Assembly: GCA_050273025.1 (NCBI GenBank)
Contig: CP158635.1
Coordinates: forward strand, 11,718,001-11,782,000
DNA length: 64,000 nucleotides
DNA from: Cenococcum geophilum
Taxonomy: Eukaryota
Direction of reading: 5' to 3'
This document shows, piece by piece, positions 21,001-64,000 of this stretch. The notes beneath the pieces are model-generated. The model worked only from the letters and a program-made list of their open reading frames with translations, searched no databases and was not told where the DNA came from. Numbering within the stretch: position 1 is the first letter of the stretch; each line of letters starts with the position of its first letter. The position numbers and the translations under genes were made by a program.

Positions 21001-21830
21001 TAGATGGATAATAGTAGTAAGAATGCCTAGAAAATATATATCTATAGTATATTAAAGATAAAAAGTAAACTAAGTATTAGCTAAAGAGTAAGCCAAGTAT
21101 AATAGGATTAAGCAGCTAATAGTTAGGAAAAGTGGAGGCCTATAGAACTAGAGGGAACTAGTAGTAGAGCCTTAGACCCTTAAAGGAATTTAAGGACAAT
21201 ACCTAAATTTATAAGTTAAGTAGTAAAATTAGTAGTTTAAGGCGCTAATAGATAGTAGAGTAATACGAAACTATATCTTATTAGCAGCAGTTAAAAGAAT
21301 AGGGTTACTATATAGAAAAAAGGAGCACCCTTACCTATTAGTAACGATTTTAGGAGATCTAATAGCCTATAGAGGAGGCATTATTAATCTTAAAACAGGA
21401 CCTATCTAAATAACTATTAAAGGAAGATAAATTAAGATATCTTTTAATATCCTACCATTAGGATAGGATAAGGCAGTACTAAGAATACCTTAGTTATAGG
21501 AATACAATCTAAGGATTAACTAGATTATATGTTAGGTTAATATTAGAAATACTTAACGCTATAAAATGCGATAATAAGCTAAGTTAGTATAGTACTAAGT
21601 AGGGGCAACCTATAAAGAAATAGAGAAAGGACTAAGCCATGTACTAAAGAGATACTATAAGTATAGTAAGAAACTATAGTTACTAAAGAGTAAAAAGCTA
21701 TTAGATTATATAGTATAGGACTATAAGATAGAATTAGAACTAGGAATAAGTCTAAAGTTTTTTCCAATTTATAAGCTTACTAAAGAAGAAGGTAGAGCAT
21801 TAAAAGAATTTATTTAGTAAAAAATAAGAT
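17702..21830 (+). mobile_element. Ty3/gypsy LTR retrotransposon (RIP'd), 5' LTR-gag-protease-start of RT, truncated by a further insertion
   Basis: LTR starts TGTTACG at 17702. Gag shows KLKGFLTQ, then *YK*GLKAKV (QYKQGLK), and a zinc knuckle YINYRK*GYFIRDY (CxxCxxxGHxxxxC) at ~19175-19217. Protease ALIDSRVIRNYI (DSG) at ~21242, followed by VLRIP*L*EYNLRIN* (VLGMPWL..NPxIDW). RT N-terminus DYKIELELGISLKFFPIYKLTKEEGRALKEFI ends at ~21818. Confidence 0.9.
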
Positions 21831-21879
21831 AAAGACCACGCATTAGGAAATAGAGGCTTCCTTTATAAGCAAGGCGCCC

Positions 21880-23550
21880 TCGCTTATTAACCCCGGCTAA
21901 GCCAAGACTGCCCCTTGACCTTAACCATAAAAGGCCATTTCTCTTGCTGCTTTTTCTCTTATCTTCTATCTTTCCTTTCTCCCAACGCTACGCCTCCTCC
22001 TCTTCTTGCTGCTAGTCCCTAACACGGTCGCATTAAGGTATTTCTGCCGTCCCCTTAGCGCTTATGCGTATGCACGTCTAGCCCGCTTATTCTTTTATTC
22101 CCCCGCGTTAGACTAATAATTAATACAGTTAATTACGGCCTTTCCGATAGGCAACTCTCTCTTTTATATTAATATATAGACGACTATAGTCTTCTAATTA
22201 CGCCTCTGTTACTAATGGCTTTAATTATTATTAAGCTCTTTTAGCGCGGCCTTATCTAGTAAGCGCGTATATGCCTTTATAATCCTTTTCTCTCTTACTC
22301 TTTCTCCTTTAGCCTCCTAAATGATGCTAGCCCGCAACCGTCTTATGGGAAGGAGGTTAGGGGAATTCTATAGTTACCAGCCGCGTTAGCACTATCGTCT
22401 TATTTAACTTAGCCCTATATCTCCTTCTAAGCTAAAGGGATAGGCGTGCGTATTGCCCCTTAAAGGGCTTAAGAGAGCTTATATTACACTTATTTTAGTA
22501 ACCTACGTTTCTCTCCTAGGATACGCTATTAGTTAGATAGCCCGCTTTAGCGTTTGCTAATAGCTAAAGCCACCTATATTACAACTTGTATGCCTACTAG
22601 GCTACTTAGCGGAAAAGCAGCTAAGGATCGCCGATTTAAGCGACCACGCCGTGCGGGGCTATATTAGGCATTATTTAAATAGATATTGCACGGAGTATCG
22701 CTTAGGTCGCCATGCATACCTTCCTAGTGGTATAGTTGCATTGCTATAGATATTTTAGTGACATTGTTTAATCTACTGGTTTAGGGCTAAGGGGCTATTA
22801 GCTTTAGCTGCCTTACTTAGCGGCAGAGCGGAGGATCAACGATCTGGCCTTTTAAGCCATAGGGCTATGGTGGGAACCACTTAGATTAAAATTAGAAGGT
22901 TATAGCTTTTAAGCGCACGATAGATTAATAGTACAGTGGCACGACTGCGTAGGAATCTCCGACACTAGCTAGCCACGTTAGGAGGGTAAGCATCCCTATG
23001 CAGTCTTTTACCTAGCACATTTATAAACATGTATACGATCACTATATAAATGGCAGGCATATCTATCACTAGGCGGTTAGCATTAAAGAGCCCTACCCGC
23101 CGCTAATAAGGATACTACCTCCTTTTATTATAGATAGCTCGTAACGCGGACGTATAAGCGGGGCTTTACCTCCTGCCGATATAAGCGGCGTAGAGGATTA
23201 GCTGGACTAGTATTGCCAGGAAGTAAATAGACATGTCAGCGCTACCCTTTACTAAGGGATAAAGGTAGGGAATTTACGCCACTAGCCTCCTAATAAGGGG
23301 CTAGATGTAATAGCTGTGTTAAAGCTAAATATACTAGCTTAGACGGGCGGATATAGTTCAATCGCAATTTGCTAAGGGTATTAATTAGGCGCTAGATATT
23401 TAAGCCCTTGTAAACCTTTATACCCTATAAACGGCAATCTACTCCAGCCTATGCCGGAGGCGCACGTATTAAGTGCTTTGATTTGGTAAGAAGCCCGGGC
23501 GAGAGGTAAGGGGTAAGAGGTAATAGATAAGAGCTAGCGGCGAACGGAGG
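21880..23550 (-). pseudogene. Unknown gene A, copy 1 (RIP'd; homologous to 62820-64000)
   Basis: Blocks shared with the window end include TAATAATTAAT..AGTTAATTACGGCCTTTCC (22115 vs 62988), GCTTTAGCGT.TGCTAATAG.TAAAGCC.CCTATATT (22544 vs 63314) and TTAGGAGGGTAAG (22978 vs 63649). De-RIP peptide GKAVIDxIDHW. Confidence 0.55.
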
Positions 23551-23634
23551 ACTGGCGTGTACTTAAAAAGACCTATAATTCCCCCCTTAAGGCTTTTAAA
23601 AGCCACAAAGCAACGGCAACTCTAACGGCAATAA

Positions 23635-25675
23635 TGCTAGCACTACCTCGATCTTTATTTTGTATCCCTCCTAAAATTTCGCTTAATAATAACAATTTCT
23701 ATACTAGTCCCCCTAGAAAATCGACAACTTCGTCTTAGTATTATATAACTATAGCTTCTAAAAAAGGCGTAAGTAGTATACCTCAGACAAAGTATAAAAT
23801 ACCACTTTTCCCCCTAAAAAGTCAAGAAGTATTAGAAGCTTGGGCACTTAATAGCATATTATTCCACCTAGGGCCTTAATTTAGAGATTCCATTTAATAA
23901 AGTGCCTATAGACCGTATATATAATTACAAGAAAGCTTATAATAAGTATTATAAGGATAATAAGGACAATAAGGAAGATGGGGATAGAAATAACAGTTAA
24001 GTCTCTAGGGGAAGTAGTTAAGGTAATTATCCTAATAATTACTCTACCACTCTTCCTCTTTTCCTAGTAGTTCTAAATATATAGTTTTAATAACTAGTAG
24101 TAAATCTAATAGTTATTAAAGATAATATAGCCGATCCGGACCTGGAAACTAAGGGTAATAAATTTAGTAACGCTAATAACGAAGCTAACTAAGTTAATAA
24201 GGCTAGTAAAGCCGATAACCGACCAATGCCCTATGAATTTGGTACGTATATTTCCTTTAATTTACAATAGCCTTGTTTAATAATTAGTAAATAACGGAAA
24301 TAATGGCAGTAATAAGGACAATAAAGAAAATAAAGAGCTGCCTTCGTTAGAAGTGCTATAAGAGGAGGTATACGCACCTACGTATAATTATACTACACCT
24401 TTAACGCTAGATAGCAGTTAAATAGATAATTTAGCTAAGGGGCATTGTATTAAAACCGCTCCGCGGTTTAGGTAGGAGCTTAAGATATTAGTAAGCGCTA
24501 GTTAAAAGTCTTTAGGAGCTAAGAAGTTAAAGAAGTAGAGGTTTAATTAACTTAAGTAACTAAATAATATTAATTATATCTCTAATACTTCCGTTAGTAA
24601 GGGTAGTGAGAGCCTACGGCTTAGGAAGTAATAAAGATCACTAGCTTTTTAGAGAACCTCGCCTCCTAGCCCTCCTACCCCTAATCTTAGCGGTGGTAAT
24701 AACCGTATTAAAGAGCAAGCGGCCTCTGCTACGCGGCCTACTAGCCCTTTACTTTAGTAATCTTTGTCTTCTTATAATATTAGACCGCCGCAAGATAATC
24801 TTAATAATCTTATTAACGGCTTAGCTAAAGAATATAATTATAATAATAATAATAAGGGCGGCGAGAACGTTGTAGACGAAGGTAAGGCCAAGAACTGTAA
24901 CAACAGAAGCAGCGATAGCGGCGATATGGATAATAACGACGCTAGGGACGGCGATAGTAGCGATAGCGATAGTAATAAGAGTAATAAGGCCTATGGGTAT
25001 ATAGGGCGATAAGGATCACTAGTGCCTATTAGTAGTGGATTAAAACCAAAGCATACTGCGAAGTATTGTCTTTAGCGGTCTTACCTTTCCCCTTTAATTC
25101 CATCTATATACACGTCCGACTAGAGTACTACGCTTAGTAGCGATTATTATAATTAGGCTAGATCCCCTATATATAATCGCCTTTATACCTAAAAGCCGCT
25201 GTTAAACTTAGCCTCTAACTCTAACTATAGTAAAGCAATACTTAGAGCCGCCTTAAATGCTAATTTAGAAGAATAGTTAATCTAAGTAGCTCTTAGGCGC
25301 TAGGAAAACGGGTCATATATACTAGATATTATTCCTTAACGATTTCCTAATAGCGTCGCCAATAACTAGAGCGACGTTTTAGACCCAGAGCCTGCTATAA
25401 AGCGCTATACCTAGGCTAAAAAAGACAAATTTAATGAAATAAACTTGGATAATAAATAGAAGATTAACGATATTCTAGGGGAAAGAATAACTAAGTTAGG
25501 GCGCGAATATAAGGTAGTTTAGAAGCCCACCTAGGTTTATAAAAGCGGGCTTTTAAATTCTAAAGATGCCCTTAAGTCTTACTAAAGACGCGTCCGGCAT
25601 GCTAAGGTTGAATTACTATAGGTACACTCTATAAAAGTAAAGGGCAGAGCTGCCGTACGCAAGGGACGGCGGTAA
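23635..25675 (+). pseudogene. Chromodomain-containing protein gene, copy 1, with acidic low-complexity central region
   Basis: 25448-25610 reads DNK*KINDILGERITKLGREYKVV*KPT*VYKSGLLNSKDALKSY*RR, de-RIP DDEWEIDDILGERITKSGREYKVVWKPTWVHESGL, a chromo fold. ORF 24764..25012 is the D/N-rich linker. Confidence 0.7.
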
Positions 25676-25949
25676 TGCTTTAGGATATCCTCGTTCTTAG
25701 ATAGTAGTGCTCTTTTTAGCTTAGAGGTCTATTTCTAGTTTAGCATTCTTATCCTTAGCGTATTTAGCAGGAATATCTTATAATTGCCAGTCTAATAGAT
25801 TCGAATTCTTTATATACTCTACACAACATACAGCCGTGAAACTCTAATTACCGCCTCGCGTAAGCTACATTCTCGCTTAGCCTAGTTGCGTTATACTAAG
25901 TCTTAATACCGCTCTAATTAAGAACACTTCGGCATCCTAGCTTATCTCC

Positions 25950-27290
25950 TATAGCGGCTTACACGGATAGCTTTACATTCTGCCTTTTACTTATCCTATT
26001 CTAACTTTTAAGCACCTAGTTATTAAAGAAAGTCCACTATAGGGAAACAAATATGCATTATATAGCTAGATTAGTACAAATATCCCATCTATTAGCATAT
26101 AATTCTTAATAGCTTTAAGGACTCCTTTATACTACTTATCCTTTATATAACTAATAAACGTAAAACTACATCTTAGTAACTACCTATTTCTTTCGGCCTT
26201 ATCTAACGTATGCGTAATAACCGCCCCTGGCGATGGATACTAGACTATCCTTATCTCCTTTTTACCCTTATTTATTCTAGTCTACACTATATATATAGAA
26301 GAACGCCAGCGCCTTAGAGAATTATTATAAGATCTATTTACCACTCCATTAAGCGTAAATACCGGCATATCTTTATTCTTAGAAATTCCCGTTAGTATCT
26401 ACTCGCTAGTAGGGCTATAGGTTATACGGATTATCTTAATATACTTTAAAAGTTTAGGATTGTCTAATAACTGGTAGACGATCTTTATACCGCGATGTCT
26501 ATATCCTAATACCGCTTTAAGCCCAAACATTTAATAATTATTAAAATAAAGTTTTGCTGTTTTACGAAACGTAATAACAAATTTCTTATAGCAGTTAGTT
26601 TTCTTCTATAAGAATATAAACTAGTTACTTATATAAACTTTTAAATGCTTAATAATATTATCCCTAGCTATTACTCCTACGGCCGAACTAAAAACGGTCG
26701 GCTAAAGGGTATAACCCCCAACTAGTATTACTGGCGATAATTGCGTAGGGGTTAAGGATGCGCTTAGTTCCCCCTTAAAGTAGTCTTAAGTAAGTCTATC
26801 CTCCACTCTAAAGTATATAAAGGGGGTATTATTATTATTAGGGTAGGTTAGGTCCTTAGTAGCATTTATAAAAGAGGGAAAGGGTTGGCTTAGCGCGCTA
26901 ATACTAAAAGAAGTCGCCGTCGCTCTAATACCGCTAGGAGAATTAAGCTTAGGAGGTATTAATTTCTTATTAATATCTACCGGAGGGTAAGAAAGATAGG
27001 GCTAAATGCTTGTCGTTATATTATCAACACTAGAGTTAGTGGTAATTACCATCTCCCTAATACTATTAAGCTTAGTAGGTATTAGTTCCTCGTTAATATC
27101 TACTAAAGGGGGAGAAGAAAGATGGAGCTAAATATTACTCGTTATATTGCTAACGCAAAAGTTAGTAGTACTCTCGCCAGCCTTATCTAATAATAAGTCT
27201 CTAGTATATATAATTCGCCTTTAGTTACTTATAGAGCTAGTAGCCTAGTAGTTCGGAGTTGCTATAGGAAGTTATTAATAGATTTTCATT
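25950..27290 (-). pseudogene. Unknown RIP'd gene with an internal ~130-bp tandem duplication near its 5' end
   Basis: Protein-like frame KFVITFRKTAKLYF...LRRWRSSIYIV*TRINKGKKEIRIV*YPSPGAVITH. The two repeat units lie at ~26945-27040 and ~27065-27165. Confidence 0.4.
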
Positions 27291-28049
27291 GCCGGTTATA
27301 GAAGGAAAGTATTTATAGAAAATAAAAATAGAGTATACCGAGTAAGTATTTATATAAGGGAAGTATAGTAAAGCTACTAGCACTAAGCGGCTTCTTATAT
27401 ATAGGGCTGCCTAAATCCTCTATAAGCTAAAGCGCGTAATATATACGCCTACAGTTAAATCAAAACACGGTAATAATTTAGAAATACTACAGAAGTTCGT
27501 ATATAAGGTTTATTATTAGTTACACTTATACCTAAATACCTCATTATACCCTAATAGAACGGCTTAGCGTTTAAATATAAGAAGTAAATAGTAAGGCCTA
27601 CTCCTGTAGTTCTTAGAGCTTAGAGGATTACGCTAAGACGGCTAGCCTATATAGGATATTCTATTCTCAATTTCGTAGTAGAGACTTAGTAACTGGAAGA
27701 GTAAAAGTCCTATATTTTTAGGTACTGCTTATATAGGTAGCAGCATTATATGGCACAAATTTATATAAGGTATAGCTACGTTAATTAGGGCACAATACGC
27801 TGCTAATTTCGTAAGGCGAGACAGGCACTGCTTATATTAGGCTTTAATTTAAGCGCCTATCTTTGATAATCTGTATAGCCATACGCCTACATACACTACC
27901 CGCCACTTATTTTTATATATTATCTTATATAGGATCCCACGGGAGCTTCTAAATAGGTTTATTAGTTAATTCCCCTTAGGATTCCTTATCCCCTAAAACT
28001 AAAACATAACTTAGTAAAAACGTACTAGTTATAATATTTATATTAAAAC

Positions 28050-28700
28050 TAACTAGTAGTACTTCTAATAGCTTTTAGTATACGCTAGCTTATAGCCTTT
28101 TAGTTTACTTTATTTAACCTATTATTTCTTAGCTTTTTATTTACGCGTTCTAGAATTTTTTCCCTTTTAGGTAAATTCACATCATTCTAGCCGCGCCGTG
28201 ATATAATAATATTCCTAGCTTCCTTATTTATAAATTTCTACTAATCCTTATTAAAAAAAGGCGCCTTAGCCTAGGCCTATATACTTACTAAAAAACGCTA
28301 CTACTACTCTAGGTTATACTAAACTGCATCCTATACCTACTTTGCAATAGTATTAGCCCTAATGTCCATTATGCGTAGTAGCGTTTAGAAATAGGTATTA
28401 GTGAAATTACTAGGTCCTAATATGTCGTGGTAAAGCGGGGTTTCGTAAATAAAGAATTTTAAGTTATTTAAGTGTCTTGGCTAACGCCACCAGTATCACC
28501 CCTACTAGTTTAATTTTATAAGACTAGTCCTCCCGCCTTCCCTAGGGTCGCACTAACTATTTAGCTAAACGCTACTAGTTCTAGCAGCCGCGCTAGACGT
28601 AGCCTACCTAATACTTTTACTACGTTACGGAATATGTAGAAGAACTATATAAGGTTATAATTTAGGTAGCCCCTAGCTAATATATTAGATCTTTCTTATA
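28050..28700 (-). pseudogene. Unknown RIP'd gene
   Basis: De-RIP frame WNDVNLPEREKILERVNEKLRNDGLDEVDQKAMSWRMLKAIRS looks like a compact helical domain. Family not identified. Confidence 0.4.
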
Positions 28701-31700
28701 CTAATAGTCCTAGGGTTGCTATGAGGAGTTAAAGTGCTAGAAGTTGCTTACTATATTATAGAAGTAAAAGAAGCTAGGGCTCCTAGGTGTAATAGCTAAG
28801 TTAATAATAATAGTTACATTTTCCCTAGTTATTAGAGGGGTAATTTATTTTGTGGATTGTAAAACCTCCCTAACACTCTATATAAGCTAAAAAAATAATT
28901 TTCTTATAAAGTAAAAGATTACTTTTATACTATTTTCTAATGCTAAAAATAGAACTCTTAATGTTGTATAATTATAAAAATGGCCAATATAAGGCTTGCG
29001 TAACTATATTATATATTAGTAAACTAATAGCTAAAATTAGGGGGGGGGGGCTTTGTACGTTAAAGTTAACCTTACGACCTTAATTTCCGTCTTGGTGGTT
29101 TGCGCTACTATCCTAATTATGCCCATATACTAGAAACCTAATAGCTAAATAAAAAATGCGTATTTAGGGCAATCCTATTAAAGCTATAATCGCAAATGCT
29201 AACTAAGAGCAATACTAATATAATAAAGCTAGACGTGCTAGACCTTAGAATCTTTAGCTAACTTTTTAAAGAGGTATATTACCTAAAAGAAAATAATAAG
29301 TAAGTAAAGAAAGGCACTATATAACGCTATTTTAATAATAGAAGGGTTTAGATGCCGTAAAAACCAAGTAATTATAACGAGGGCAAGGGTAGGGTAGGTA
29401 AATCTGCTAAAGGGAGCTATAATCTTAAATATTTAAGAAAATGGAAAAGAATAAAGATAAAAGTAGGAGTAGGCTAGCTTATAACGATATTATTCCTAAG
29501 AAATAAGGCGGGCTATGTAAATGCTATATCATTACTACTAAATAACTTAACTAAGCGGCTTTCTAATAAGTTGTCGCCTAAACCTTAGGCGATGAATAAC
29601 TAAAGAAGGCACTTAGGGCGTATAGGGGTTAGTTACCTTCTCCATTCTATTACTAGATTAAGTATTTAATACTATCTATAATTTTAGGTAATGCTAAATA
29701 AAAAAAGAGAAGAGTATAAATCTTTTATTTCAGCTAGTAACTTACAAGTTTTCTATATTATTATGCCCCGCATTAATCTTTATCTCCTAGCTATACGCTT
29801 ATAATGCGGCGCTGTGGTTTATAAGTACTAAAACCATATAGATACTCCACCGGACCTTCTATTAACTTAGTCTTAATATTAAACCTAAAGTGCCTTAAAA
29901 TAAGTTGGCTTACTAGTATAGCTAACACCTATATTTTCTTTCCCTCTTCGTCCTACTTTTTTACTACTATTTTAATAAGTATTCTACCTAGACTAGACTT
30001 CTAATAAGACCCGTATATAGTAAGAGTAAAGATTTTCATCTAGCAATCTTAGGAGTACCTAGCGTAAAATTAGCTACGCCCCTAAGCCTATAACCTAAGA
30101 CCTATACTAATGCCCCTTAGCTTAAGTTTTTTCCTTATAAAACTTAATATTATCCAGGTTTTTATCTTAACGTAGATTTTTAATACCCTCTAGGAGGCTA
30201 TTAAGAATACCTTTATTTTATTAGCTTGCAAACTTATACTAGATAAATAATAGTACCGTATAAATGCCCTCCTTAGGCGGTGGTTAAGGTTCTAGGCCAC
30301 TTATAATAAGGACGCCAGAAATTACAGTTTCGCTAATTAGCACCGTCAAATCTTGCCTGGCCTATAGTGACTTAACTACCTTAGCTTTATTTTTATTGTA
30401 TAGGCTTTCTACACTATAAACCCTTAAGGTAGAACTAAGAAGCGCATTAATAAGATTAACTGCGTAAAAGTCGTATATGTTTATTAGGAATTCTTTAGAA
30501 TATAGTCTCCAAATCTTAAAAGATAGGGAGGTTTTAAAAGCTAAAACAATAATATAGGTTGCTCGAAATATATCTATATACGTAAGCGGTCGAATTTAAT
30601 AAGTAGCTATCGCAGGAGAGAGTAAAGGAAAGCAAAATTGGCAGCAAAAGGAGGAGCACCCTTAAAAGATATACGAAGAAGTTATAATATTAATTAGATA
30701 AGAGCTATTGGGACCGTTGCAGATATAGTAGCTATAGCCCCTACTCCAACTAATGGAATTAGGTTCTTTAGTATTACCATTCTACCCTTCCTTTAGATAG
30801 AATCTGGTAAAGGATTCTGTACGGCAGGTATAGCTAAGAATTATTACCGCACGTATTATACTAATTCATTATTATACATTTTATATCTGCTTAGTGTTAC
30901 CTAATACTTAACCTTTAGGAATATATATATATGAGCCTAACGCTACCGAATACTATTAGATGTAAAGATAAGGTGCTAAGGCGGAAGATTTAATTTCCTA
31001 AGCTAGATATAAATAACTACTATTAAGGGTCTATAATGGACAGACACGGCCTCTACTTTAAAATATTCTCTACCCCTCTTTCTTTAATATAGTTCTCTAA
31101 ACCTTAGAGATTCCCCTAAATTATAGTCTGCAATTTAATTAGAATAGATACTATATAAGAGATATTAAACGTACTTAAAACGTATATGCGTTAGAGTGGT
31201 TATATATTATTTTAAGGAAAGTGGGTAAATAGATAATATCCCATACTTATTACTCTCTAGTTTTTCTATAAAGAGCACTAAGGAACTTCTGTTAAGACTT
31301 AGAGAAGGAATAAATTAAGGAGTAAGAGAGTTTATCTATAGTCCTCTTATCTAGGTAGATGTAGAGAATTTCACTTAATATTAAATTATTAGGTATTCGA
31401 GCGACTTATTAGTATTTTAGGTGGTTAGGATTTTCTAGACCCGCACCTACCGTTTATTAGTCTTTTAGGCCTATAGTAATTTAATGCCCCAATAGGCCGG
31501 TACTAGGACGCGACTTTAGAGGTTCCGTTTGCTAGCCTTATATACCCTTAAGTTAGTAAGTACCGGAACGCGAAGTTTTAAGCTTAGTAGTTAATTTAGG
31601 ATAGCTTTCTAATGTAATTAAAGACGCCCTCTTTAGATTAATATCGGTATATAATAAGGCACTTGCTCCTAGGCCAAGGTTAGTAGTTAATATATTATAG

Positions 31701-32323
31701 CCCAAATCTTAATCCTAGCTACTAGTGATGGTTATAAGAGGCTGCTAAATATACTAGTCTAAGACTAGTAGGGTTTAGCAAATTGCGGCTTAAAAGAGCA
31801 AGCTAATTATTAAAGAAGTAGCATCTATATCGAAGAATAAAGTGGCTATAAATAGCTAGCAGAAATAGGATAGACTAGGGAATGGTTTAAAAGAAGCGGT
31901 AAAAATAGTAAAGTTAAGGAAGTAACGAATAAAAGCTATAGAAGAAGGCGATAAGGCAACCGGTAAAGTGGACGGTAAAGGTAACTATGCATCCCTAGTA
32001 ATGGGGCGAAATTAGCTTTATATATCACTTATCTCTATCCTATACCCTTAAGATTTAAAGCATTCTTAGGTTTATTAAGGCGTTTTATCTTTTAATTCTT
32101 ACGGGACGCATTATTATATTATTAAAAAGAAATTAATGGGAGCTTCTAGACTTTATAGCAGTGGGTAAGCTATATTTAATTAACCGGGGAGATAGCTGCA
32201 AATCCTTACTTTAATTAGCTGTTTAGTTTTCCATTATAAATCTTTAGAGGAGCACGAGTTGCAGTGGTAGAGTTTGGTAAAGTGTGGCGTTTTAGGGATA
32301 ACGAGGCAAGGGGCAAATACACG

Positions 32324-32491
32324 CTAAGTTAAAATTATAGGGGTATTATCGTTGCGATCGCAACAATAATCCCCTATAACGTTTCCTGCTTCCTTTACTC
32401 TTATACACTAAGTTAAAATTATAGGGGTATTATTATTGCGATCGTAATAATAATCCCCTATAACATTTCCTGCTTCCCTTACTTTTATACC
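32324..32491. repeat. Two tandem 84-bp units, each containing a ~45-bp palindrome
   Basis: TTATAGGGGTATTATCGTTGCGATCGCAACAATAATCCCCTATAA at 32335-32379 and its more RIP'd twin at 32419-32463. Confidence 0.9.
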
Positions 32492-32523
32492 CTATTACCT
32501 TCTTTTTTTAGTTTAGCTAGCCT

Positions 32524-34325
32524 ATAGGATTACAAATACCTCTTTACTTTAGAAGTGTAGTGAAATAGATTTTAGCGCCACGGTAATTCTATTCCGTAGC
32601 CTTTCCCTTCCTAAGGCTAATTATTATTTATTATAGGACGGAGAAGCAGTCCTTCCCAGTGTACTATTATAGCTTACTTATACCGTCCGTCCTTATTACA
32701 CCGTAGGTTTACCTTCTATTACTCCTCTTATAAGGGGTACTTATGGATAATAGTTATTGTTAAATAAGATTAAGCTTTTTACGTAATTTCTGCGCTCTAC
32801 TAATAAAGGCGAAGTAGTAAAAGCCTATAAAAGAGTAGTAGACAAAATTCTAGAGGCCTTACCCACCAACCGTAAAGAGGCGCTTAGCTTAAATAAAACC
32901 CTAACGGTCTTAAGCCCCTAGAACGCCTTAGCAATCCTAAAAGCTATAAAAGCCCTAAAAGCTATAAAAGCCCTAAAGGCCTTAACGACCCCTATAGATT
33001 TAGAGACTAGGAAAGCTATAGTTAAATTCATTTTATTATTCCGGATTTTTAAAAGATAAGGAACCCTACCTTCTAATAAAAGCCCAGACCCACTTTACGG
33101 AGGAAGCCCCGCCTCTAAGGGAGTAAAAACCGCGCTTATAAAACGCTAGAATTTATTACTAGCAGCTATAGAGCGACTGGTTATAGTTTGTACGAAAATT
33201 CAGTCTTTAGATAATCGCGAATTAGAATAGTTCCTTAAGCTTTATAATCTGGCTAAGGGCGGATTACTTAAAGCCCTTTAGGAACTATATATTAAACTAG
33301 TAGGAGCTAATAACTAGGTAATAATTCGTAACCTAGCTAATGTCCTTAACGTAGGCAAAAATGCAGTTAGTTGTAGGTTAATAAAGTCTGTTCTATCTAA
33401 GACGCTAAATAATAAGGTAGAGTAATTAAAGAAAGAAGGTTATAGGCCTAAAAAGGGCTAATAATTTAGAGCTTTAGTATAGGAGATGGCCTGTCTATTA
33501 GGAGGAGAGCGCCTTAAACTAAATAATATTGCTAGTTAGAAATAGAGTCGTCTTAAACCTAGAGTACTTATTAGTCTTTACAACCTAGATTCTAGTATAA
33601 TATTAGTTTTTAATTATCTCTATTAAATTAATAACTAACCTATAATAGTATTAAAAGGTATATAGCACCCAAAGAATTTAATATATTAATTGCTTAAATA
33701 GAAACACAACTATAATACTAGAAATGGACGGAATTATCCCCCTTAGCAAGGAACCTAAAGGATATATATCTTTGTTATGCTAATACTAACTCTATAAGTT
33801 AGCCTGAAGCCAACAGCGCCATTTAAAACCCTAGGGGTATAAAAAGATTAATTATTACTAAGCAGTCTAATACTAAATGTACTAGGCGCGAGTTATTTAA
33901 AATAAGTAGTCCGCAAGCCGTCCCTAACGGGAGTTCCGATTAAATATTTCCAACGTCTTTAAAAAACCAATATAGTATAGTTATACTAGCTAATCTTTAT
34001 TCGGACCCTTCTAAGATACTATTACCTTTTAGATCTACCTTAATCCCTAAGATCTACTTATACCCTTTAGAAATCCCTCTTAACCTAAGCCATTACTCGA
34101 CCCCTAAGATGTCCTTCTCTTTTAAACCTATCTTAATTCCTTAAATCTACTTAGATCTACTATTAATTCCTTTTGATATATACCTAGACTATTACTTAAA
34201 TTTTAAAGTACCTTCCTCTTTTAAACCTCTTAATTCCTGAAATCTATTCGGATCCTCTGTTAATTCCTCTTAATTTAAATTCTAATCTCTAGCCAATTAC
34301 TCCGCTAATTACTATAGTGATAAAT
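32524..34325 (+). pseudogene. Unknown RIP'd gene with a Pro/Ser/Asp/Phe-rich imperfectly repeated C-terminus
   Basis: Protein-like frame EVVKAYKRVVDKILEALPTNRKEAL. Short repeats AAAAGCCCTAAAAGCTATA near 32940-32980 and imperfect repeats at ~34000-34280. Confidence 0.4.
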
Positions 34326-40269: not shown

Positions 40270-41000
40270 ACCTTTAGCCTATACATCCTCTAGCAATTTG
40301 TTTATACTTATATAATCTTAGGCCTAGCACTTAGCAATAATATTGTTAAATGCAGCTAGAGCGGCTAGGTTTAGAAACTTTCCCTTAATATATATATTAC
40401 ATATTTCTTAGTCTAAAAGCTCCTTATATAGCTTTAATCCTATTATTATCTTATAAAAGGTAGAGCTAAGAGTAAACACCTTACTTTTTATAGAGATTCC
40501 TTTAATTTTAGGGTGCTTATAACTAGTCTTATAATAGATAAGAGGGGCTTAACTATTAATTAATAACCTAGCAAAGTCGCCAAGCTTCGCATTAAGCTCT
40601 TTATTAAGGAAAACGTTATTATAAAAAATATCCTTATATAGCACCTATTTAGAGTAAATAAAAGTAATTAAAGCTATAATCTGTTAAATTTAGCAAAGTT
40701 GTAGTGGCAGCGGAACCGGCTTAGCTTATTTTATAAAGTATTATTTTATAGAACTATTATAGGCATACTATAGGATAAGGGCATCCTCTAGGCTCCTATA
40801 AAATTAAAGAATACTATTATAATATTGTCCGAGGCGTTAGTAGATATACTTTTCCCTCTTAATAAATAGCAGCTTAGTAGGCCGGGCGAACTTTATAATA
40901 GCATTAAGACGAGCGACCAGTGCTGTAATTCTAACGCCTATTATATCTTAGCCGTTTAAACTATATAGGTAATAAATAGTATAGTCTGTTAGAGGCATTT
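40270..41000 (-). pseudogene. Small fungal protein-kinase-like gene (RIP'd)
   Basis: Reads VLYKDIFYNNVFLNKELNAKLGDFARLLIN, de-RIP HxDISCNNVFLDKELNAKLGDFAGSSID. Also KSKVFTLSSTFYKI (xSEVFALGSTFYEI) and IIVKC*A (AKCW). Confidence 0.8.
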
Positions 41001-44029: not shown

Positions 44030-45600
44030 GTTTTTGCTTTAACACTAGTATTAATTAGTTTCTTCTAAGGTAGCTTCTAGACTTCGGTAGCCTTCTAAAG
44101 TTGCTCCTAGGCTTATAGGAGTAACTAAGCTACTAAGGGGCGTTATAGGGGACTAAAAGCGACCATTGCTTTTAAGTCTTTAAATAGTGTCTTATTTGCC
44201 GTAGCTCTAATAATATTAAATACGTCCTGTTAAGATGCCTGCTAGGATAGATCCCTAAGATCCAATCTTATATAAAGAGCCTCCAATCTTAAATAGAACC
44301 TATACTTATCTCTTATATTAAATATAGTAACTACTAATAACTAGACGTCAGCCTTTACTAACTGCCTCTTCTTAGTATAAACCTCCGGTGCTATATAAAG
44401 GCTTATACTATAATACGTTTTTGTAGATATTACCTTATTATAAATGCTAAAATCCCTTAGCCGGAAGTAATGGCTACTAGTAGTGGCCTTGTAGAGAATA
44501 TTAGTAGGTTTAATATCCTAATAGATAAATAAATTCTAATCTAGATAGTTAAGAGCGTAGAGGATGTGGTTAAAGGCGATAGGATAATAGTAGGCATTGC
44601 TTAAGCCGCGGAGATTATCTAATAAACTATCCATAAGTTTAGTAAACATATTAATTGCACTAGTAGTTATCTTATACTATATATATTTAATAATATATAT
44701 TTATAGAAAAAGTTAGTATAGATAAAAATTATTACAACTATATGTCGTAAGAGATTAAACGTATATAAGTAAGACGTACAATGGTCTTAACCTCTTATTT
44801 AATGTGAATTAAATCGGCTTTATCTAATAGAATTAACTTTTTTATAATATACGCACTAAAATCCATATTAAGAGCTTGGAAAACCGCCCTAAACTAGCCT
44901 CTGCTAATGCCCTATAGGGTTTTATATTATATCCCTAGTGCCTTTACAGGAGTATGGATTCTTATTATCTATTAAGATAGTAGAACGGTTGGTACTTCTT
45001 TAACTGTCTACGTAAGCCTAGGGTCCTTTACCCTTTTAGATAAGTCGCTAAGCTAGGTCTCTAACTTTTTTAAAACGTTATCTTTATACTAGAGAAACTT
45101 AAACTAAACTAGTGTTAAAGCCATGCTACCTATTCCAATCTTAGTATTTCTGGTAGGGAGTAGAACAACCTCGTGCTTACGACCAGCCTTAAAGGGGGTA
45201 GGACGCGCCCCTAAGACCTAGGTAGTATATTGGCTGCTATAGTCTTAAAGAAGAATAACTCTACTTTAAAGAATATAGAACTCGTATTAAAGCCTAGAGA
45301 TTTAGGGTTCCTAAACCGTTATATTATAATCTAAACGTCTAATAGTAGTAAGACATTCCAGAGAGTATAAGTTAAGAAGTAGGCCAATATCCAGTCCTAG
45401 GGTATTATTTGGCAATTAGGACACTAGATAACGATTAAGTAGATTTTAGGCTACTTATTCCACTTTTATATTTATTAGCTTTAGTATAAATAGTAATAAT
45501 AGCTAAAGGCATAGATATTATAAATTTATTATTTTTAGAAAAGCTTATTATAGGACTAATAATAAACAGCTTTCTGGATTTAAGTACAGTGCCGTTAATT
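44030..45600 (-). pseudogene. Ser/Thr protein kinase gene with probable N-terminal FHA domain (RIP'd)
   Basis: Reads GISRG*FRAVF (GxGxFG), FIY*DIKPTNILY (HRDIKPxN), LRDFSI (GDFG), YIAPEV and KADV*L. Upstream ISRL*YEF...ILL*DYSSQYT resembles the FHA motifs ISRxH and DxxSxxGT. Confidence 0.78.
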
Positions 45601-51399: not shown

Positions 51400-52160
51400 A
51401 TATATATATGGGAATGCTAAAATTATCTTAAGGATTAGGCTTTTAATCTTTAGACGCCCTACTTATATGTTTTTTCTTAGCATTTATGTATATTAGCCAG
51501 CTTAGCTCTAGAATTGGAAAGCTAAATAAGAACTCTATAAGCGCTAGATATCCTCTAACCCTCTTTTTATCTACTTTTTATTAAATACTTTATTAAGAAA
51601 TATTGTTTAGGATTATCTCTTAAAAAGCTCCTACCTTAAAACATCTAGAATGCGTATTTCTTAGGTTAACGACAATAAGGCCGTTTCGGATATTTAAAGC
51701 GGCAAAATTACTCTAGAAGACTTAGACGATAAGAGTATATACCAGCTAAGTAAGATAAATAAACTAACTAGTCTATATCTAAACCCCTACGATTTATATA
51801 ATAAAGATAACGGCGAGTATAATAGCTCCGCCGCTAATTAGATAAAGTAATACTACTTAAATTCCTACCTATAGGGTTCCCGGGCGATATACAACTAAAT
51901 TAATAAAATGATCTTAAACGATAAATAGGAGATCGACGATATTGTAGGGGAAAGGATAACTAAGACAGGACGCGAATATAAGGTAGTTTAGAAGGATACC
52001 TAGGTCTATAAAAGTAGGCTACTAAATATAAGGGAGGCTCTTAGGTTTTACTAAAGGCGCGTTAGGTATACTAAAGTCTAGAGCGCTAAGCAGCATCTAA
52101 TTATAGTAGCGACGTCGTAAGAGGGTAGAATAAATCGGAAGAGACGCTTCTCCTAAGTTA
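51400..52160 (+). pseudogene. Chromodomain-containing protein gene, copy 2 (RIP'd)
   Basis: 51917-52078 reads NDK*EIDDIVGERITKTGREYKVV*KDT*VYKSRLLNIREALRFY*RRVR, clearly paralogous to 25448-25610. Confidence 0.72.
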
Positions 52161-55100
52161 TGTAGAATAGCAATACTACCTTAATTACTACGGAAAAAGC
52201 TAAAAAAAGTATTGAGTAGTTCTTGCTCTATAGCTAAGGTGGCAATTTATTTACTAATCTCGTCTTACGCCGTAAAAGGATATATACTTTTATTTGAAAA
52301 TATATTACTACTAAGTAAATCGCCATTAATTTCAGCTAATTGTTTAAGGTTAGGTTAGAGAAGTAGAAGCTACTTAATAAAGAATTATACTTATTGTTTT
52401 GTTATTATATTATATTTTAAGCCAGTTAGCTTCTTAAGATGGATATTAGTTAAGGACTTACTTTAATAGCACGATTGCTTTAGTAAGATCTTTTAACTAT
52501 AGGTAATTGCTTACTTTTAGAAACCGAAGCTAGGGCTCTACGTTTATAAATAGGAGGAAAGATAAAATTTAAATACTATAGACAAAGTAGAACAATTTAA
52601 GAATTGCGCTAACCTTAAGGTTATGCTTAAATATCCTAATAGCAGAATCTCTAGTGCCTCTTAGAATTTTCCAATCTCTGTTAAATAACTTAAGTATTAG
52701 GTCATTTCGAATATAGTCCTAGGCTTTCCTACTAGGAACGACATTATTTTACGGCTGGCTCTTTTTGCGCCTTTTTAAAAAGATAGCTAATTTAGCTTAG
52801 ATATAGGAGTTAAAGCTTTCCCGTAATTTAACTTAACTGATTTGCCTTTATACGATGCCTTTGTGCGTCCTGCTTTTAGCCTACCTTATATCTCAAATAT
52901 AGGCGCGGATGCGATGAATATCCTTAACCTTACTATTGGCAGAATTAACTAATTTGCTCTTGCTCTAAGATTCCTATAATAAATTAATAATAATACGCGC
53001 AGTTATACAGTTAAATATTAGCTGTATTATTCGTATAATAGATAGAAAAGGAAGGCCGGAAGTAATAACTATATTATTAAATTAGGAGAACAGAATTGGA
53101 ACAGGGGGTATTAATTATTAAAAATTATAACGTAACGCGTCTAAAATATTTATGTCGATAGTAGGGTTTAAAGAGATGCGTTGCTTTTTAGATAACAATA
53201 GGGCGATATACTTTACGTTAGCGCTTCCTTCTATAAGGGTAAAGATAGTCGAATTCCCTTAAACGGCGCTAATTTTTGGGTAGTTACTGTTGCTAAAGGA
53301 ATTAGTAAGGGTAGATCTACGTATAAATTAACCTACCTCTTAGGCGGCCCGCCTCTAATAATACTAAGGTCGTTCTCCGTAATAGGAGCCTAGCTATATT
53401 TTCTGCTGCAAAACTAATAGTTAAGAGGAGGTTCCCAGTCCTCCTTAAGTGTGAAGTTAATAGCTTTAGTAATATTAACTCTATTATTTAAAATTTAATG
53501 GTATATATACGGTAATATGATAACCATTTCCCTAGGCTAGTAATGGGTGATTTTGTAGCGAATATGCTAGAGATTAAGTAACTCCTTATATAGTATAAGA
53601 TCTATATACCGGATGAATTAGGAGCAGGCTAACTTCTGTACCTTAGAGTTCGATTTTTGCTTTTAAAAGTTAAAAACCTCCTTAATTCTATCTTTTAACT
53701 GGCATATATTGTTAGGGGAGACTATTAACTAAGACTTGGGGGCTTTAGTATAAACAAGATTTATAGAGCTAAGTCTAGCATCTTCTATATATATAGTTGC
53801 CGGCGTATTTTAAGAACTACTAATATATATATATAGTAAATGTATCCTAAGGATCTTTGCCTTTATCTTATTAAGTTAAGTCCTATAGTTAAGAAGTGAC
53901 TTACTACCTAAACTAATTATTTCCTGTTCTTCGCTAGTAGAGGTAGGGTAAATTAAGTACGGGAGGGTTTTGTTCTGGATTTTAGTAGCGCAAAATAGGT
54001 TTATAGCAGTAGACGGTTAATGAGAAAGAATTCTTGGGATCCTAAACTTGTCTTTTTATTAATTGGAAGACGCCTGGTATATAAGGTTGCATATAGTATA
54101 GTTTATAACCTCCTTAGTACGTAAAGGCCGTATTATATAAGCCGTATAATTAAAGTTTAAGGGGGCACTGTGCTTCCCTATAATTTAGCCTTCTATAGAT
54201 TTTAAGTAAGTAGAGAGCGCGTCTAGCGGAACCGAGACTTTAAAATAGCTAATTTTCTATAAGGCTGGATCTCTTTTTATAATTGTTTAAATTGTTTATA
54301 TAAGATGGCTTATATTAATAGTGTCAAATCGGCTAGAACCTATATACTCCTAATATTCGCAAGACTCCTTTAGTCTATTATTAGGCTCTTCTCTAGCTTT
54401 ATCTCTTCTAGCCTTTATAGGTGCTAAAAGTTTAACACTTTTCTTATGTTTCCGCTTAAGGCTAGTATATTTAAGGCTGGCATACTTAAGGCGAGAGATA
54501 ATTTTCTATAGCTTTATAATAATTAACCTAAGTTAGAGCCCTTTAGGCTAGGTAGACTGTGCTTAGATTAGTGCTAATAGGGGTATAATAAAGGGGACTA
54601 TACGTACTTAAGTTAAGCGTTTAAAAGCTTTAAGTGAGTTTAGGAGAGTTTACTATAACCGTAACTATTATAATATTATTCTTAGGCGTGGGAGAGAAGT
54701 GAGTGCGTATGGGCCCTATACCTTAATCTTAGAAGCTGCATCGAGGTATAGTTACGTGAAATTTCTTAGATTGTCCTAGCGATAGCTAGCCTATAAAAGG
54801 GCTGAGATATAGGATCTAAATTGCTTAGCGTTAGGATTGTATAAAAGAGTTGCCGTATAAAGTGGCTAGGACTTTTTCCATTTTTAGGAAAGATCGATTT
54901 TAGATTAAATAGATAGGATAGCGTTTGCTTCCTTAGCTTTAAGGTTACTAAGCTTTTATAATGCTAATATATACTAGCCCTAGCGGCTCTAGGCAAATCT
55001 TGTGTAATAGTTGACTTCTAAAGAGATAGGGGTAGTATGTAGAATAATTAGATAATGTAAATACCCTAACTCTGCATGTAAAACGACAAAGTTTAACCTT

Positions 55101-59679: not shown

Positions 59680-62600
59680 ATTAAAAATAGCTAATAGCGC
59701 GCCCCCTACTCTATAAGCGACCCTATTCCCTAATAATAATCTCTAAAAAAAGCAATAGAGGAAGGGAGATAGGGTTAAAGAACTAGCTAAACCTAAATAA
59801 GAAAACCAAATACGCCAGAATAAGATTAACAAAATTCTTAAGTGGAGTAATAACAACGCCGGTCTACTAAAATTTATTTAACTTAAAAAGGGCGACAACC
59901 TAAGTCCTACTTAGAAAATATAAGCGTGGCGGAAGGTAGTATAGGAAGTATATCTAAAGCGGGGTAGTATAAATAATGGCGATAAGGCTCTTTAAAGTAT
60001 AGAGTTTAATATATATATAATATACAACTAACTTTTATATAGTTATTATAAACGTTACTAAAAAACTTAATGTTCTAAGTGAATATGTTAAAGAAATAAA
60101 GAATTAAACCCCTAAGAAGGGTCCAATTAACTTTAACTATCCTCTTAATAGTAAAAAAAAAGGTATAAAGAGGCCAGAGCTAAATAATAGGTTTAGCCGT
60201 AGTAAGTCCTTAACCGCGCTATAAGATCTAATAACAGATAAGGACGGAGATTAAGAAATAAAAGATGATGATTTTAATCCTAATTAAGTTAGTAAATTTC
60301 ATATTAACCACTAAAATAAAAAGTTAGTTCCTATTTTTTGGCGAGTTATTATTAAAGACAACTCTATAGCTTTTAATAACCTAAGAAAAATAAATTAAGA
60401 AGCTATTAAATATAATGAAGTATATAACTGCTATAAACTCTTAGGCACTATTTATTATAAGATAGTTCTTTTATTATTAAAGGATTTAAGAAATACACTT
60501 ATATATATAATAAAAGGAGAACTAGATAATTTTAGTATAGGGATAGTAAAAAACCACCTAGATATAATTAATACTAAATTACTAGCAGCCTAGTATAGAG
60601 AATAAAGAAAGGATCTTCTAAACTTTCTTCCTTTTACCCTTACTCTTAATAATAATGTTCTTAAAAGATAGTAGGTAGAGTAGTAGGCGTTTTTATAATC
60701 GGACCTATCTATAAAGAAGAAAAAAGCCAAGAAAGATAAGGGGAAGAAGAAAAAGGGGAAGGAAAAGAAGAAGGAAAAAAAGAAGAAAAAGAAGAAAGGG
60801 AAGAAAGGAAAAAAGGAAGTAAAGAAAAAGAAAGGGAAGAAGAAGGATTATATAAAGGTTACCGAAGATAACACTAATAAAACTTTTTAAACCTTTAGCA
60901 GCGACGAAGAAGCAAGGTTAAGTCTTGTTAGATAGCTAATAGTAGTAGCTTAAGGGCTAGTAGGAGGCGGGTTATAGTAGCTATTAGCTCTTAATTTAGT
61001 ATTTAAAGATATTTAACGGTTATAAAAGGTATATATTTATTACAAGCGGAAGATTTAGTAAGGGGATTTTGCAAATCTATAAGGATAAATACTTTAAGCT
61101 AATTATAAAAGGCATAAAGAAGTATATTAAGGATGTCCCCTTTATAAGTATTACTATTAGAGGTATAGTATTAGTAGATAGAGAATCGAGCCTAAAAGGT
61201 TATATCTCCTTAAAAGTTAAAAATAACACACCCTATTACACTAATATGCTAATTATAGCTATATATATTAAGGTAAAGGGTATAAAGAGGTGGTTTTTAA
61301 GGACCGTATTATATAATAAGTACGGATTAGGACTTATTAATAGGGAATTAGAGGGGTATTAGAAGAAGGTAAAGTAACTAGAGCCTAATAGTATACTAAA
61401 ATATACTAAAAAGCAATGGATACTAGTAGGGGGGGGGAGCGGATAAGTAAGAGGAAATTTAGAAAGAGGGACAACTTAGACAACTTAGATAACTTAGATT
61501 TATCTTTCTTTAGGAACAACTTAGATAATTTAAACTCGTCTTCCTTTAAGGACAACTCTAATAACTCTACCTCTAGGGATAACTCCTTATTAGATAAGTT
61601 ATCGGAGGAAAAAGAGAATAGTAACTTAGATTTAGATAATAAGGGCAATAAGGACAACTTAGGCTTATTTTCCTCTGGGGATAATAAGGACAACTCCTTG
61701 TCGGATAAGTTATTAGAGGAAGAAGAGGATAGCGACTTAAACGACTTAGATAACTTAAATAACTTAGGTAATAAGGATAATAAGGATAATAAAGAAGATA
61801 ATAAGGATAATAAAGAAGATAATAAGGATAATAAAGAAGATAATAAGGATGGGAAAGCAATAAAGGGTAAGGAAAATTCCCTAGTAATAAAGTATAAGAA
61901 GCTAATAGAATTAGGGAAAGAAAAGAAAGCTAAGAAAGAAAAGGGAAAGAAAGAAAAGGAAAAAGAGAAGAAAGGAAAGAATAAAGAAAAGAAGAAAAAG
62001 AAGAAGGAGAAGAAGAAGGAGAAGAAAAAGAAAAAGAAGGAAAAGAAAAGGAAGAAAAAGAAAAAGGAAAAAAAGAAGAAGGAAAAGGAGAAGGAAAAAA
62101 AGAGGAAGGAAAAGAAAAAGAAGAAAAAGGAGGAGGTAAAGAAGAAAAAGAATAAAGAGAAGAAGAAGAAAAAGAAAAATAAGAAGAAGAAAAAAAAAAA
62201 TAGGGAAAAGGAAAGAATAAATCTAAGTAAGTTCTAGTATAGTAGTATTAAAGTAGTTCTAATATTAATAGGGTATAGAGATTCTAAAATCGTATTATAA
62301 GACGCTAAAGAAATGTTAAAAGGGTTTCTTAATAGTTTAGGGGAGTATAAATATCTAGAGGATAGTATATTAAAAATGCTAAAAGGAGGGCTTAATAAAT
62401 TATATATAGAGATAAAAAGAGATATAAAAATAGATAAAAAGAGAAGAAATTAAATGCTAGTAAAAATTAAAGTAATAAAAAAGGAAATAGATATTAACGC
62501 GGAACTATAGTACTAGCTAGTCTAGTATTATTAAATAGAAATTAATTAATAATCTTTTAAGCCAAATTTTATTATTTTCTACTTATCTCCTCTAAGAAAG

Positions 62601-62700
62601 AAGAATAGCTCTAGAAGTAAAAGTTAGCTAAAAGATAGTAATATAGAGGAGATAATATTCGCGAAGTTTATTTTACGTAAGAATTATCTTATAAATTAGA
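59680..62700 (+). pseudogene. Large unknown RIP'd gene with acidic repeats and long Lys/Glu low-complexity tracts
   Basis: ORFs 61069..61362 (…IKRWFLRTVLYNKYGLGLINRELEGY) and 61416..62237 are surviving in-frame pieces. Purine-only tracts at 60715-60850 and 61915-62220 escape RIP stops. Confidence 0.5.
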
Positions 62701-62819
62701 CGCCCTATAGTAAAATTCGGTTATAGGGCAGGGAAAGTATATATATACGGCTATCCCCTATAAAGTAGAGAATTTGTTAGTAAGGAGCGGTTAGTTTATA
62801 AGAACTTAGCAAACCTTAG

Positions 62820-64000
62820 CTTCGCTAAGACCCCTAACCTTTACCTTAAAGGGCCTTATTTTCTTCTTATTCTTATCTTTTCTTATACCACACCTCCCCC
62901 TCTTCTTATTACTTATTACCGTCGTATTAAAATATATTCGCCCCTTAGCGCTAATATATATATAAGTATCCATTTTATATCTTTAACTAATAATTAATGT
63001 AGTTAATTACGGCCTTTCCTTTAGCCTCTTCTAACTCTAGCCTTTAGTATTAGCAACTTTCCAACGCTTATTAAGTTCTTTTAGTACTACCTCTATCCTC
63101 TTAGCGCGTATATATCCTTATAATTCCACTTTCTCTTTTACCTCTCTTTTTTTAATTCCTAATTAAGACTACTCCGTAGTCATTTATATGCCCTTCCTAG
63201 GTAGGGATAGATAGGCGTACCGCCTCGCCCCGCCTTCTTTACTAAGTTAAGTATACGTTATATAATTTAATTACGCGCTCTTTTCCCCTAGGATGCATTA
63301 TATAGAGCCAATAGCTTTAGCGTCTGCTAATAGTTAAAGCCGCCTATATTATAAGGATATACTACTAGGTTACTTAGTAGAAACCTAGCTAAATATCTAA
63401 GCGGCTATACCCTACTAGGCTATTAGAACTAGACCTCGTAAGTAGTATTTTAGGTAGCTATATACGTATACCTATCTGCCTATATAGTTATATTAAAACG
63501 GGTATTTTAAGGACGCCGTGCGGTCTATAGGCTTAGGCGTAAAGGACTATCTAGCTACCTTACCACTTATAAGACGTTTAAGCGGTAAAGGTTTAGTCTT
63601 TTAGGTCAGAGTATATAACTGCAAAGGATTAATACCAGCCAGTCTATATTAGGAGGGTAAGTATTACGCAGTATTCTATACCGCCTATTACTAATATATC
63701 TAGGTTATTTAATAGAGCCTTACTTACTACGCAGCAGGTCTAGATTACTTAGTATAGCTAACAGACGTACTAGTAATAAAGTAATTAGTATTAGAGGGTC
63801 CTGCTTACCGCTAGTAGGTTACTTAATTATATAGGCGGTAGGCGTACTAGTGATAAAGCAATTAGCATTTAAGAGCTTCGCTCGCTACTAGTAGATCTAA
63901 ATTACTTAATAATGCGGGAGGGTAGGCGTATTAGTGGTAGAGGGGTTAATAGGGAGCTACTAGTATACTTAAATTATTTAATAATTATATATGTAGTAGG
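62820..64000 (-). pseudogene. Unknown gene A, copy 2 (diverged paralogue of 21880-23550, runs off the window)
   Basis: Colinear shared nucleotide blocks with copy 1 and shared de-RIP peptides LEELD and GKAVIDxIDHW. Confidence 0.55.

Follow-up and report, generated by a model that had tools for sequence, protein, structure and literature searches.

An AT-rich block of Cenococcum geophilum DNA probably contains a derelict copy of a large, many-copy mobile family inserted in a gypsy element

Large cargo-carrying transposons of fungi are hard to find, because they are usually low-copy and without structural hallmarks. The closest described systems are the Starships. According to passages of PMC11162782, their captain is a DUF3435 recombinase located at the 5' end and reading inward, with the element boundary no more than 7 kb, and in most cases no more than 2 kb, from the captain start. 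Parts of PMC11162782 and PMC10104507 describe Starships as low-copy and without conserved LTRs (long terminal repeats) or TIRs (terminal inverted repeats), many of them lying in AT-rich DNA and transposable elements, and report that Hephaestus integrates at TTAC(N7)A. Passages of PMC10104507 also state that multi-copy Starships have undergone repeat-induced point mutation (RIP) and that remnants are common. The subject of this study was a stretch of 64,000 nucleotides from C. geophilum (GenBank assembly GCA_050273025.1, contig CP158635.1, positions 11,718,001 to 11,782,000 of the forward strand), called the window throughout, in which a first-pass annotation had proposed a Starship-like element of more than 42 kb hidden in a RIP-mutated block. 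We concluded, with a probability of roughly 0.7, that the DNA from position 21815 onward is a derelict copy of a large, many-copy, modular mobile family, designated E, inserted in the reverse transcriptase (RT) gene of a gypsy retrotransposon. E has several features in common with Starships, but the evidence does not allow it to be classed among them.

The RIP-mutated state of the block was borne out by its GC content and dinucleotide indices. Between 17 and 64 kb, GC was 0.28–0.41, TpA/ApT was 1.3–1.8, and (CpA+TpG)/(ApC+GpT) was 0.24–0.80, all of the RIP type. The corresponding values for the genic part (1–16 kb) were 0.45–0.51, 0.67–0.93, and 1.16–1.45. All but one of the 18 open reading frames (ORFs) of at least 100 aa in the window were located before 16.1 kb.

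16807–64000, no strand assigned: RIP-mutated AT-rich repeat block, defined by GC content and RIP indices and continuing past the right end of the window

The gypsy element was identified by a homologue search with the read-through translation of 18002–21850, in which stops were written as X. Four proteins had E≤0.001 among 5371 candidates. The best of these, P0001 (1402 aa, E 3.8e-69), carries RVP, RVT_1, RNase H, rve, and Chromo domains, that is, protease, RT, RNase H, integrase, and chromodomain, and its match identifies 21161–21814 as Ty3/gypsy. Two pieces of gypsy pol were located with P0001:

21161–21814, plus strand: gypsy pol fossil comprising the protease and the beginning of RT (P0001 aa 1–218, tblastn, 56% identity, E 6e-58)
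17703–17816, plus strand: C-terminal end of pol from an upstream, truncated gypsy copy (P0001 aa 1364–1401, tblastn, 68% identity, E 4e-9)

The codon aligned with P0001 residue 218 has its last base at 21814, and residues 219–1363 had no match anywhere in the window by tblastn at E≤1, nor did any part of P0001 after 21814. Because the same query recovered aa 1–935 in one piece from an equally RIP-mutated locus, L001 (see below), the test had power and the absence of the gypsy RT after 21814 is real. The annotation's statement that the RT frame stops and never resumes was therefore correct as far as 64000, and the resumption it had suggested looking for was not found before that point. Its placement of the break at 21.82–21.84 kb needed correction to 21814/21815, and the IR.RP motif that it had read as RT belongs to the inserted element, downstream of 21814. 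The gypsy fossil had no match in the PDB. In each of the four runs described below, summed contig depth over 17337–22005 exceeded the depth of the single-copy flank by a factor of thousands, showing this gypsy family to be extremely abundant.

Base 21815 proved to be the exact end of a repeat family. A 27-mer from repeat piece B (see below) was scanned over metagenome contigs and yielded 12 loci (L001–L012), all of them RIP-mutated, with GC of 0.32–0.37; a 32-mer from the window end had no match in the metagenome contigs. Seven copies sharing the left end (the window, L002, L003, L004, L008, L010, and L012) were aligned with MAFFT. Their common sequence starts TAGTAAAAAATAAGAT... at 21815. Over the 21 pairs, mean identity was 0.85 in the first 100 nt of E versus 0.56 in the 100 nt upstream, and the seven copies had six distinct upstream flanks, one being shared by L004 and L008. 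Because the copies are unrelated upstream and the gypsy codon ends at 21814, we conclude that 21815 is the base-exact end of E inserted in the RT gene. The same exact end occurs in different genomic contexts, which is the criterion for a mobile element, and the earlier proposal that something large and mobile had inserted in the gypsy RT was upheld. The first 80 nt of E recurred at the end of the element in 8 of the 12 loci and in inverted form in none of the 12, indicating that E has no TIR. The motif TTAC, or its RIP product TTAT, adjoined the end of E in five of the seven copies (four of the six distinct flanks), a small sample in which the motif was chosen after the data were seen.

Collinear copies set the minimum length of E.

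21815–35782, plus strand: proven part of mobile element E, class I, with a base-exact left end and collinear with other copies

Positions 6104–20027 of L010 and 21814–35772 of the window formed one 13,973-bp alignment of 90.8% identity that ended only at the end of the locus; thus E is at least 14 kb long. The metagenome contigs behind L010 and L009 measure 49,471 and 137,172 bp, and E begins about 14.2 kb into the former. Four further loci (L002, L003, L004, and L012) were collinear with the window over the same stretch at 85–88%. Between the window and L010 (21815–35772) there were 12,687 identical positions, 1205 transitions, 17 transversions, and 63 gap columns; 525 of the transitions were in CpA/TpG and 391 in CpG contexts. 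Because so many transitions were accompanied by so few transversions, the two copies must have had the same sequence before RIP. In-frame tandem repeats were observed inside E, of 126 bp at 26942–27170 and of 84 bp at 32324–32494.

Contig depth was examined by placing contigs of four runs on 12–32 kb at ≥90% likeness. The runs were X1, the possible source; X5 and X7, which carry a sister label; and X6, a root metagenome. X5, X6, and X7 represent three studies besides that of the possible source. Summed contig depth climbed from about 16.7 kb. In X1 it was about 45 on the single-copy flank and 110,000–260,000 over gypsy. Over 22–32 kb it was 765–3116 in every 667-bp bin, or 17–69 times the flank, with a fourfold variation between bins. 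Depth ratios in X5, X6, and X7 were similar, and every 667-bp bin of 22–32 kb was covered in all four runs. Summed contig depth is not copy number; it shows only that many related contigs exist. The short contigs leave holes in 22–32 kb and none bridges E, neither of which informs on absence. Together, the 12 loci obtained from one 27-mer and the summed contig depth demonstrate that E is a many-copy family.

Comparison of the copies showed that E is modular. Thirteen copies (the window and the 12 loci) split at 25997 into eight of class I, which continue like the window, and five of class II (L001, L005, L006, L007, and L009), which have one shared continuation differing from the window. The family thus consists of a common 4.2-kb end module and exchangeable interiors.

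21815–25997, plus strand: 4.2-kb end module common to classes I and II, with 13 copies diverging at 25997
23984–25997, plus strand: inner part of the end module, holding A and B, with matches in all 12 loci
25348–25618, plus strand: repeat piece A, matching 51820–52088 in direct orientation
25645–25910, plus strand: repeat piece B, matching 41691–41426 in inverted orientation (233 of 266 positions identical, 29 transitions, no gaps)
51820–52088, plus strand: stray copy of A, matching 25348–25618
41426–41691, minus strand: inverted stray copy of B, matching 25645–25910
21889–23110, plus strand: left-arm stretch R1, recurring at 62812–63818 with a transition-tolerant score of 394 versus 43–58 in 10 shuffles
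62736–63818, plus strand: E', the 5' part of a second, diverged copy of the E family, with an approximate start near 62.74 kb

At least two diverged subfamilies of the module's left arm occur. The module as a whole has little coding periodicity, its first 2.2 kb have no coding signal, and 12 frame pieces of the end modules of L009 and L003 gave no Pfam match. The assignment of E' rests on the left arms of the window and L010, in which module positions 75–1296 aligned to 62812–63818; weaker alignments with L002 and L009 reached module positions 1–9 at 62736–62760. The 182 bp after E' (63819–64000) matched neither 23111 onward nor the gypsy RT. Because of the E-like end there, E either ends before about 62.74 kb and is at most 40.9 kb long, or has E' nested within it.

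Several candidate features of the family were rejected. A common right end of class II was not sustained, as L007 and L001 leave the family at differing points (at about 12030 and 12078 of L009), because a GC-rich, apparently un-RIP'd element is inserted there; it lies at nearby points in L007 (from about 9201) and L001 (leftward from about 6931), in opposite orientation. A gypsy RT read by eye ahead of the second repeat (60–63 kb) gave protein alignment scores of 31–34, below shuffle maxima of 48–53. Pfam at E≤1 gave no support for a chromodomain read by eye at 25.35–25.62 and 51.82–52.09 kb, and a deRIP consensus reads as chromodomain-like by eye only. Downstream of the class II copy in L009 we observed two fossils containing stops, one of DUF7025 (about 15051–15341, plus strand, E 1e-22) and one of Pkinase_fungal (about 18320–19300, minus strand, E 1e-60).

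At least one protein gene is carried within the proven part of E.

32787–33536, plus strand: C4, a fossilized orphan protein gene within E, whose 4-copy profile matched 11 proteins in 1.84 billion

All 11 matched proteins are fragments, of 46–225 aa, of the same gene. The 225-aa match, P0009, has a normal, un-RIP'd composition. C4 belongs to no Pfam family, with nothing above noise in the 8 of the 11 matched proteins that were scanned, and has no longer relatives and no usable Atlas neighbour. Short Lys/Ala-rich repeat units occur inside C4 in numbers that vary between copies.

Other coding content was sought by six-frame Pfam searches of 16–64 kb with stops written as X, in 36 frame pieces, at E≤0.01, E≤5, or E≤1 depending on the piece set. 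Stop density could not be used to separate coding from noncoding DNA, because stops in the true gypsy fossil, counted from the P0001 alignment, amounted to about 9%, the same as background. Pfam matches were obtained in 3 of the 36 pieces, with nothing in 22–40 kb or 54–64 kb:

44314–44697, minus strand: Ser/Thr protein kinase fossil (Pkinase 40.7 bits, above the cut-off of 31.7)
40414–40782, minus strand: weak protein kinase fossil (21.1 bits and E 2.3e-4 for Pkinase, short of the 31.7-bit cut-off; E 6e-4 for PK_Tyr_Ser-Thr)
53453–53812, minus strand: JmjC fossil of the KDM4/Rph1 type (JmjC 27.3–30.4 bits, cut-off 24; best PDB match yeast Rph1, E 1.9e-6)
42274–42372, plus strand: weak MADS-box (SRF-TF) fossil (21.9 bits, E 1.2e-4, below the 26-bit cut-off)

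In a 3000-aa frame piece, the two kinase stretches together scored 51.8 bits for Pkinase. The fossil at 44314–44697 was weakly CAMK-like against the PDB (E 7e-4), and none of 7999 scored candidates from a set of 5.8 billion proteins matched it at E≤0.001. An F-box match was marginal (E 0.0078). The 36 pieces contained no match to reverse transcriptase, integrase, transposase, Helitron_like_N, or PIF1, and none to DUF3723, patatin, Ferric_reduct, FAD_binding_8, NAD_binding_6, or NLR. DUF3435 was found neither in these pieces, those of 31–64 kb included, nor in the 12 pieces from the L009 and L003 end modules or 6 pieces downstream in L009, the thresholds being E≤1 for 33 frame pieces and E≤0.01 for 6; the annotation had likewise seen no DUF3435, DUF3723, or patatin. 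Its ferric-reductase-like genes were not recovered, and for the corresponding motif, the one HPFT (at 45922) is about what chance predicts and its frame had no PDB match at E≤10.

Period-3 power was measured on the purine/pyrimidine sequence, in which the signal is RIP-proof because RIP makes only transitions. Over 23.2–60.6 kb of the block the mean was 2.39 and 28% of 185 windows exceeded 3, compared with a mean of 4.86 and 48% of 66 windows for the genic flank and null values of 1 and 5%. By this measure, the share of the block that looks formerly coding is about half that of the genic flank. The earlier picture of a dense array of mutated non-transposon genes thus stands in part: the kinase and JmjC fossils and the raised period-3 signal agree with it, but Pfam matches in only 3 of 36 pieces do not bear out the density.

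We favor a derelict copy of the E family from 21815 onward. If so, the multi-copy state of the family would have exposed every copy to RIP, integration may be site-specific beside a TTAC-like motif, and the recombinase or transposase may either act in trans or have its gene beyond the proven 14 kb. The DNA from 35.8 to 64 kb would be either a continuation of E whose cargo includes the kinase, JmjC, and MADS fossils, or additional nested repeats; these fossils lie outside the proven part of E and the orphan gene C4 lies within it.

Several results weigh against this interpretation. Neither a right end nor a target-site duplication nor an empty site was observed, so that the case for mobility depends on a single end. 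The loci compared had been cut at 10 kb and reach only to about 35.8 kb of the window, where the evidence for collinearity ends. Beyond that point, stray A, stray B, and E' show that 36–64 kb is at least partly mosaic. The six-frame Pfam searches found no enzyme gene in E, and the longest ORFs in a deRIP consensus of 2–7 copies were 154 aa for E and 144 aa for the module. The power of Pfam on RIP-mutated DNA is limited, and weak or short domains can escape it, because the scan itself overlooked the gypsy protease.

The first alternative, which is possible though on the unlikely side, is that E is only a mid-sized repeat of about 14–20 kb and that the 42-kb block is an ordinary RIP-mutated repeat nest, or AT isochore, which trapped a few duplicated pieces of host genes that then underwent RIP, without any single giant element. 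The several repeat families in the block (gypsy, E, A, B, and E'), the location of all Pfam-detectable host-type fossils outside the proven part of E, and the fourfold variation of contig depth between bins over 22–32 kb are consistent with a nest. However, no RT, integrase, or transposase domain was detected in the 42 kb, though kinase and JmjC fossils of similar length were found there; internal repeats in the block are few, none other than A, B, and R1 reaching a score of 80; and because gypsy does not resume, either everything up to 64000 lies in the gypsy gap or the gypsy element is truncated.

We regard as unlikely the alternative that E is a derelict Starship, in which 21815 is the distal end, a DUF3435 captain lies at the opposite end (past 64000, or degraded past recognition), and the cargo comprises the kinase, JmjC, and MADS fossils. 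The lower size bound of Starships is about 15 kb, and the proven length of E falls just under it; the gypsy gap exceeds 42 kb. E sits without TIR or LTR in a transposable element within AT-rich DNA, its conserved end module and variable interior resemble Starship haplotypes, and non-transposon domain fossils occur in the block. The TTAC-like motif at the junction can be compared with the TTAC(N7)A of Hephaestus given in parts of PMC10104507 and PMC11162782, and RIP-mutated multi-copy Starships and common remnants are on record in passages of PMC10104507. On the other hand, the six-frame searches, which covered 22–31 kb of the window next to the visible end, found a captain on neither strand within 7 kb of 21815, nor within 7 kb to the left of 62.74 kb, should E end there. 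Of the auxiliary genes frequent in Starships (DUF3723, ferric reductase, patatin-like, and NLR), none was found in 16–64 kb. The many copies of E contrast with the "low copy number" of Starships in the relevant passage of PMC11162782, and in L009 the class II copy gives way, some 9 kb from its end, to the DUF7025 and fungal kinase fossils without a recombinase. For these reasons the Starship-like label of the first-pass annotation could not be kept: its check for DUF3435 by six-frame search gave no match in 16–64 kb of the window and none within 7 kb of the visible end, no signal of the accompanying domains was found in any frame of 16–64 kb, and the copies are many.

A rearrangement or segmental-duplication breakpoint, joining a truncated gypsy to duplicated chromosomal DNA, would accord with the unseen right junction and the host-type gene fossils, but it is highly improbable, because a one-off breakpoint explains neither the same base-exact end behind six flanks nor two classes with one end module. 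Scarcely credible is a giant LTR-type element with the 1.2-kb repeats at 21.9 and 62.8 kb as its LTRs, for although these are direct and 40.9 kb apart, their alignment of 1237 columns contains 87 transversions and 245 gap columns, against about 1 transversion per kb between E copies, the 182 bp following the second repeat do not match gypsy RT, and no RT or integrase lies inside.

The surroundings of the block yielded further observations. Intact ORFs in the genic part matched dihydroxy-acid dehydratase, DUF155/RMND1, PI3/PI4-kinase, and a HET-domain protein, which places the DNA in a filamentous ascomycete. The last of these, an intact HET-domain (heterokaryon incompatibility) gene at 11603–12979, is the last Pfam-matched ORF ahead of the block. 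Where the genic part meets the repeat block, a near-perfect palindrome of 470 bp (83% identity to its own reverse complement) occupies 15729–16197. Contigs from X6 and X7 agree with the window as far as 16807, after which they continue for about 1050 and 850 letters unlike it, and contigs from X1 and X5 stop at 16833; the break at 16807–16833 may be a structural difference between strains at the start of the repeat block. The sole ORF of more than 100 aa in the block (61416–62237, 273 aa) is a purine-rich, Lys/Glu-rich low-complexity tract, listed together with 60713–60848, and is open only because the tract lacks T. Rfam and tRNA scans of the whole window gave no match, indicating that there is no 5S or tRNA target.

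These results show that a RIP-killed block, which is junk to ORF finders, can be resolved as a defined element that ends at an exact base and has many copies in related fungi, and that such "AT junk" can be dissected by comparing RIP-mutated copies, the differences between which are nearly all transitions. An intact relative of E is hinted at by the un-RIP'd fragment P0009. If one exists, the E family would be a case of a many-copy Starship lineage or of a captain-less giant element; should the block prove to be no more than a repeat nest, it would be an AT isochore of the ordinary kind. A bolder and quite doubtful proposal is that E represents a new family of cargo-carrying elements in filamentous ascomycetes, giant in size (about 41 kb) and high in copy number. 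Such elements would integrate site-specifically at a TTAC-like motif, have a 4.2-kb noncoding or orphan end module, swap their interiors, and carry host-type regulators (kinases, a KDM4-like demethylase, and a MADS factor) but no DUF3435 captain in cis. They would be either satellites that borrow a Starship captain in trans or a separate superfamily.

Compared with known systems, E differs from LTR elements in having no near-identical LTR pair and no RVT or rve match in any frame. Gene-capturing Helitrons have no TIR, no obvious target-site duplication, variable captured content, many copies, and 5'-TC and CTRR-3' ends. E is like them in its lack of a TIR and of an obvious target-site duplication, its many copies, and its variable content; it is unlike them in that no Rep/helicase domain was found in any frame, which bears on autonomous copies only, and in that its end resembles neither 5'-TC nor CTRR-3'. 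From non-autonomous transposon derivatives E differs in being, at 14 kb or more, far larger than the usual ones and in having no known master copy, and it resembles them in its shared 4.2-kb end module, two interior classes, high copy number, and lack of a detected enzyme gene. From Starships E differs in its many copies, in a first 2.2 kb with no coding signal, and in having no detectable captain, DUF3723, FRE, PLP, or NLR genes. It may be like them in its large size and its TTAC-like motif, and it is like them in its exact end without LTR or TIR, its location in a transposable element within AT-rich DNA, its conserved end and variable interior, the host-type fossils in the block, and its mutation by RIP.

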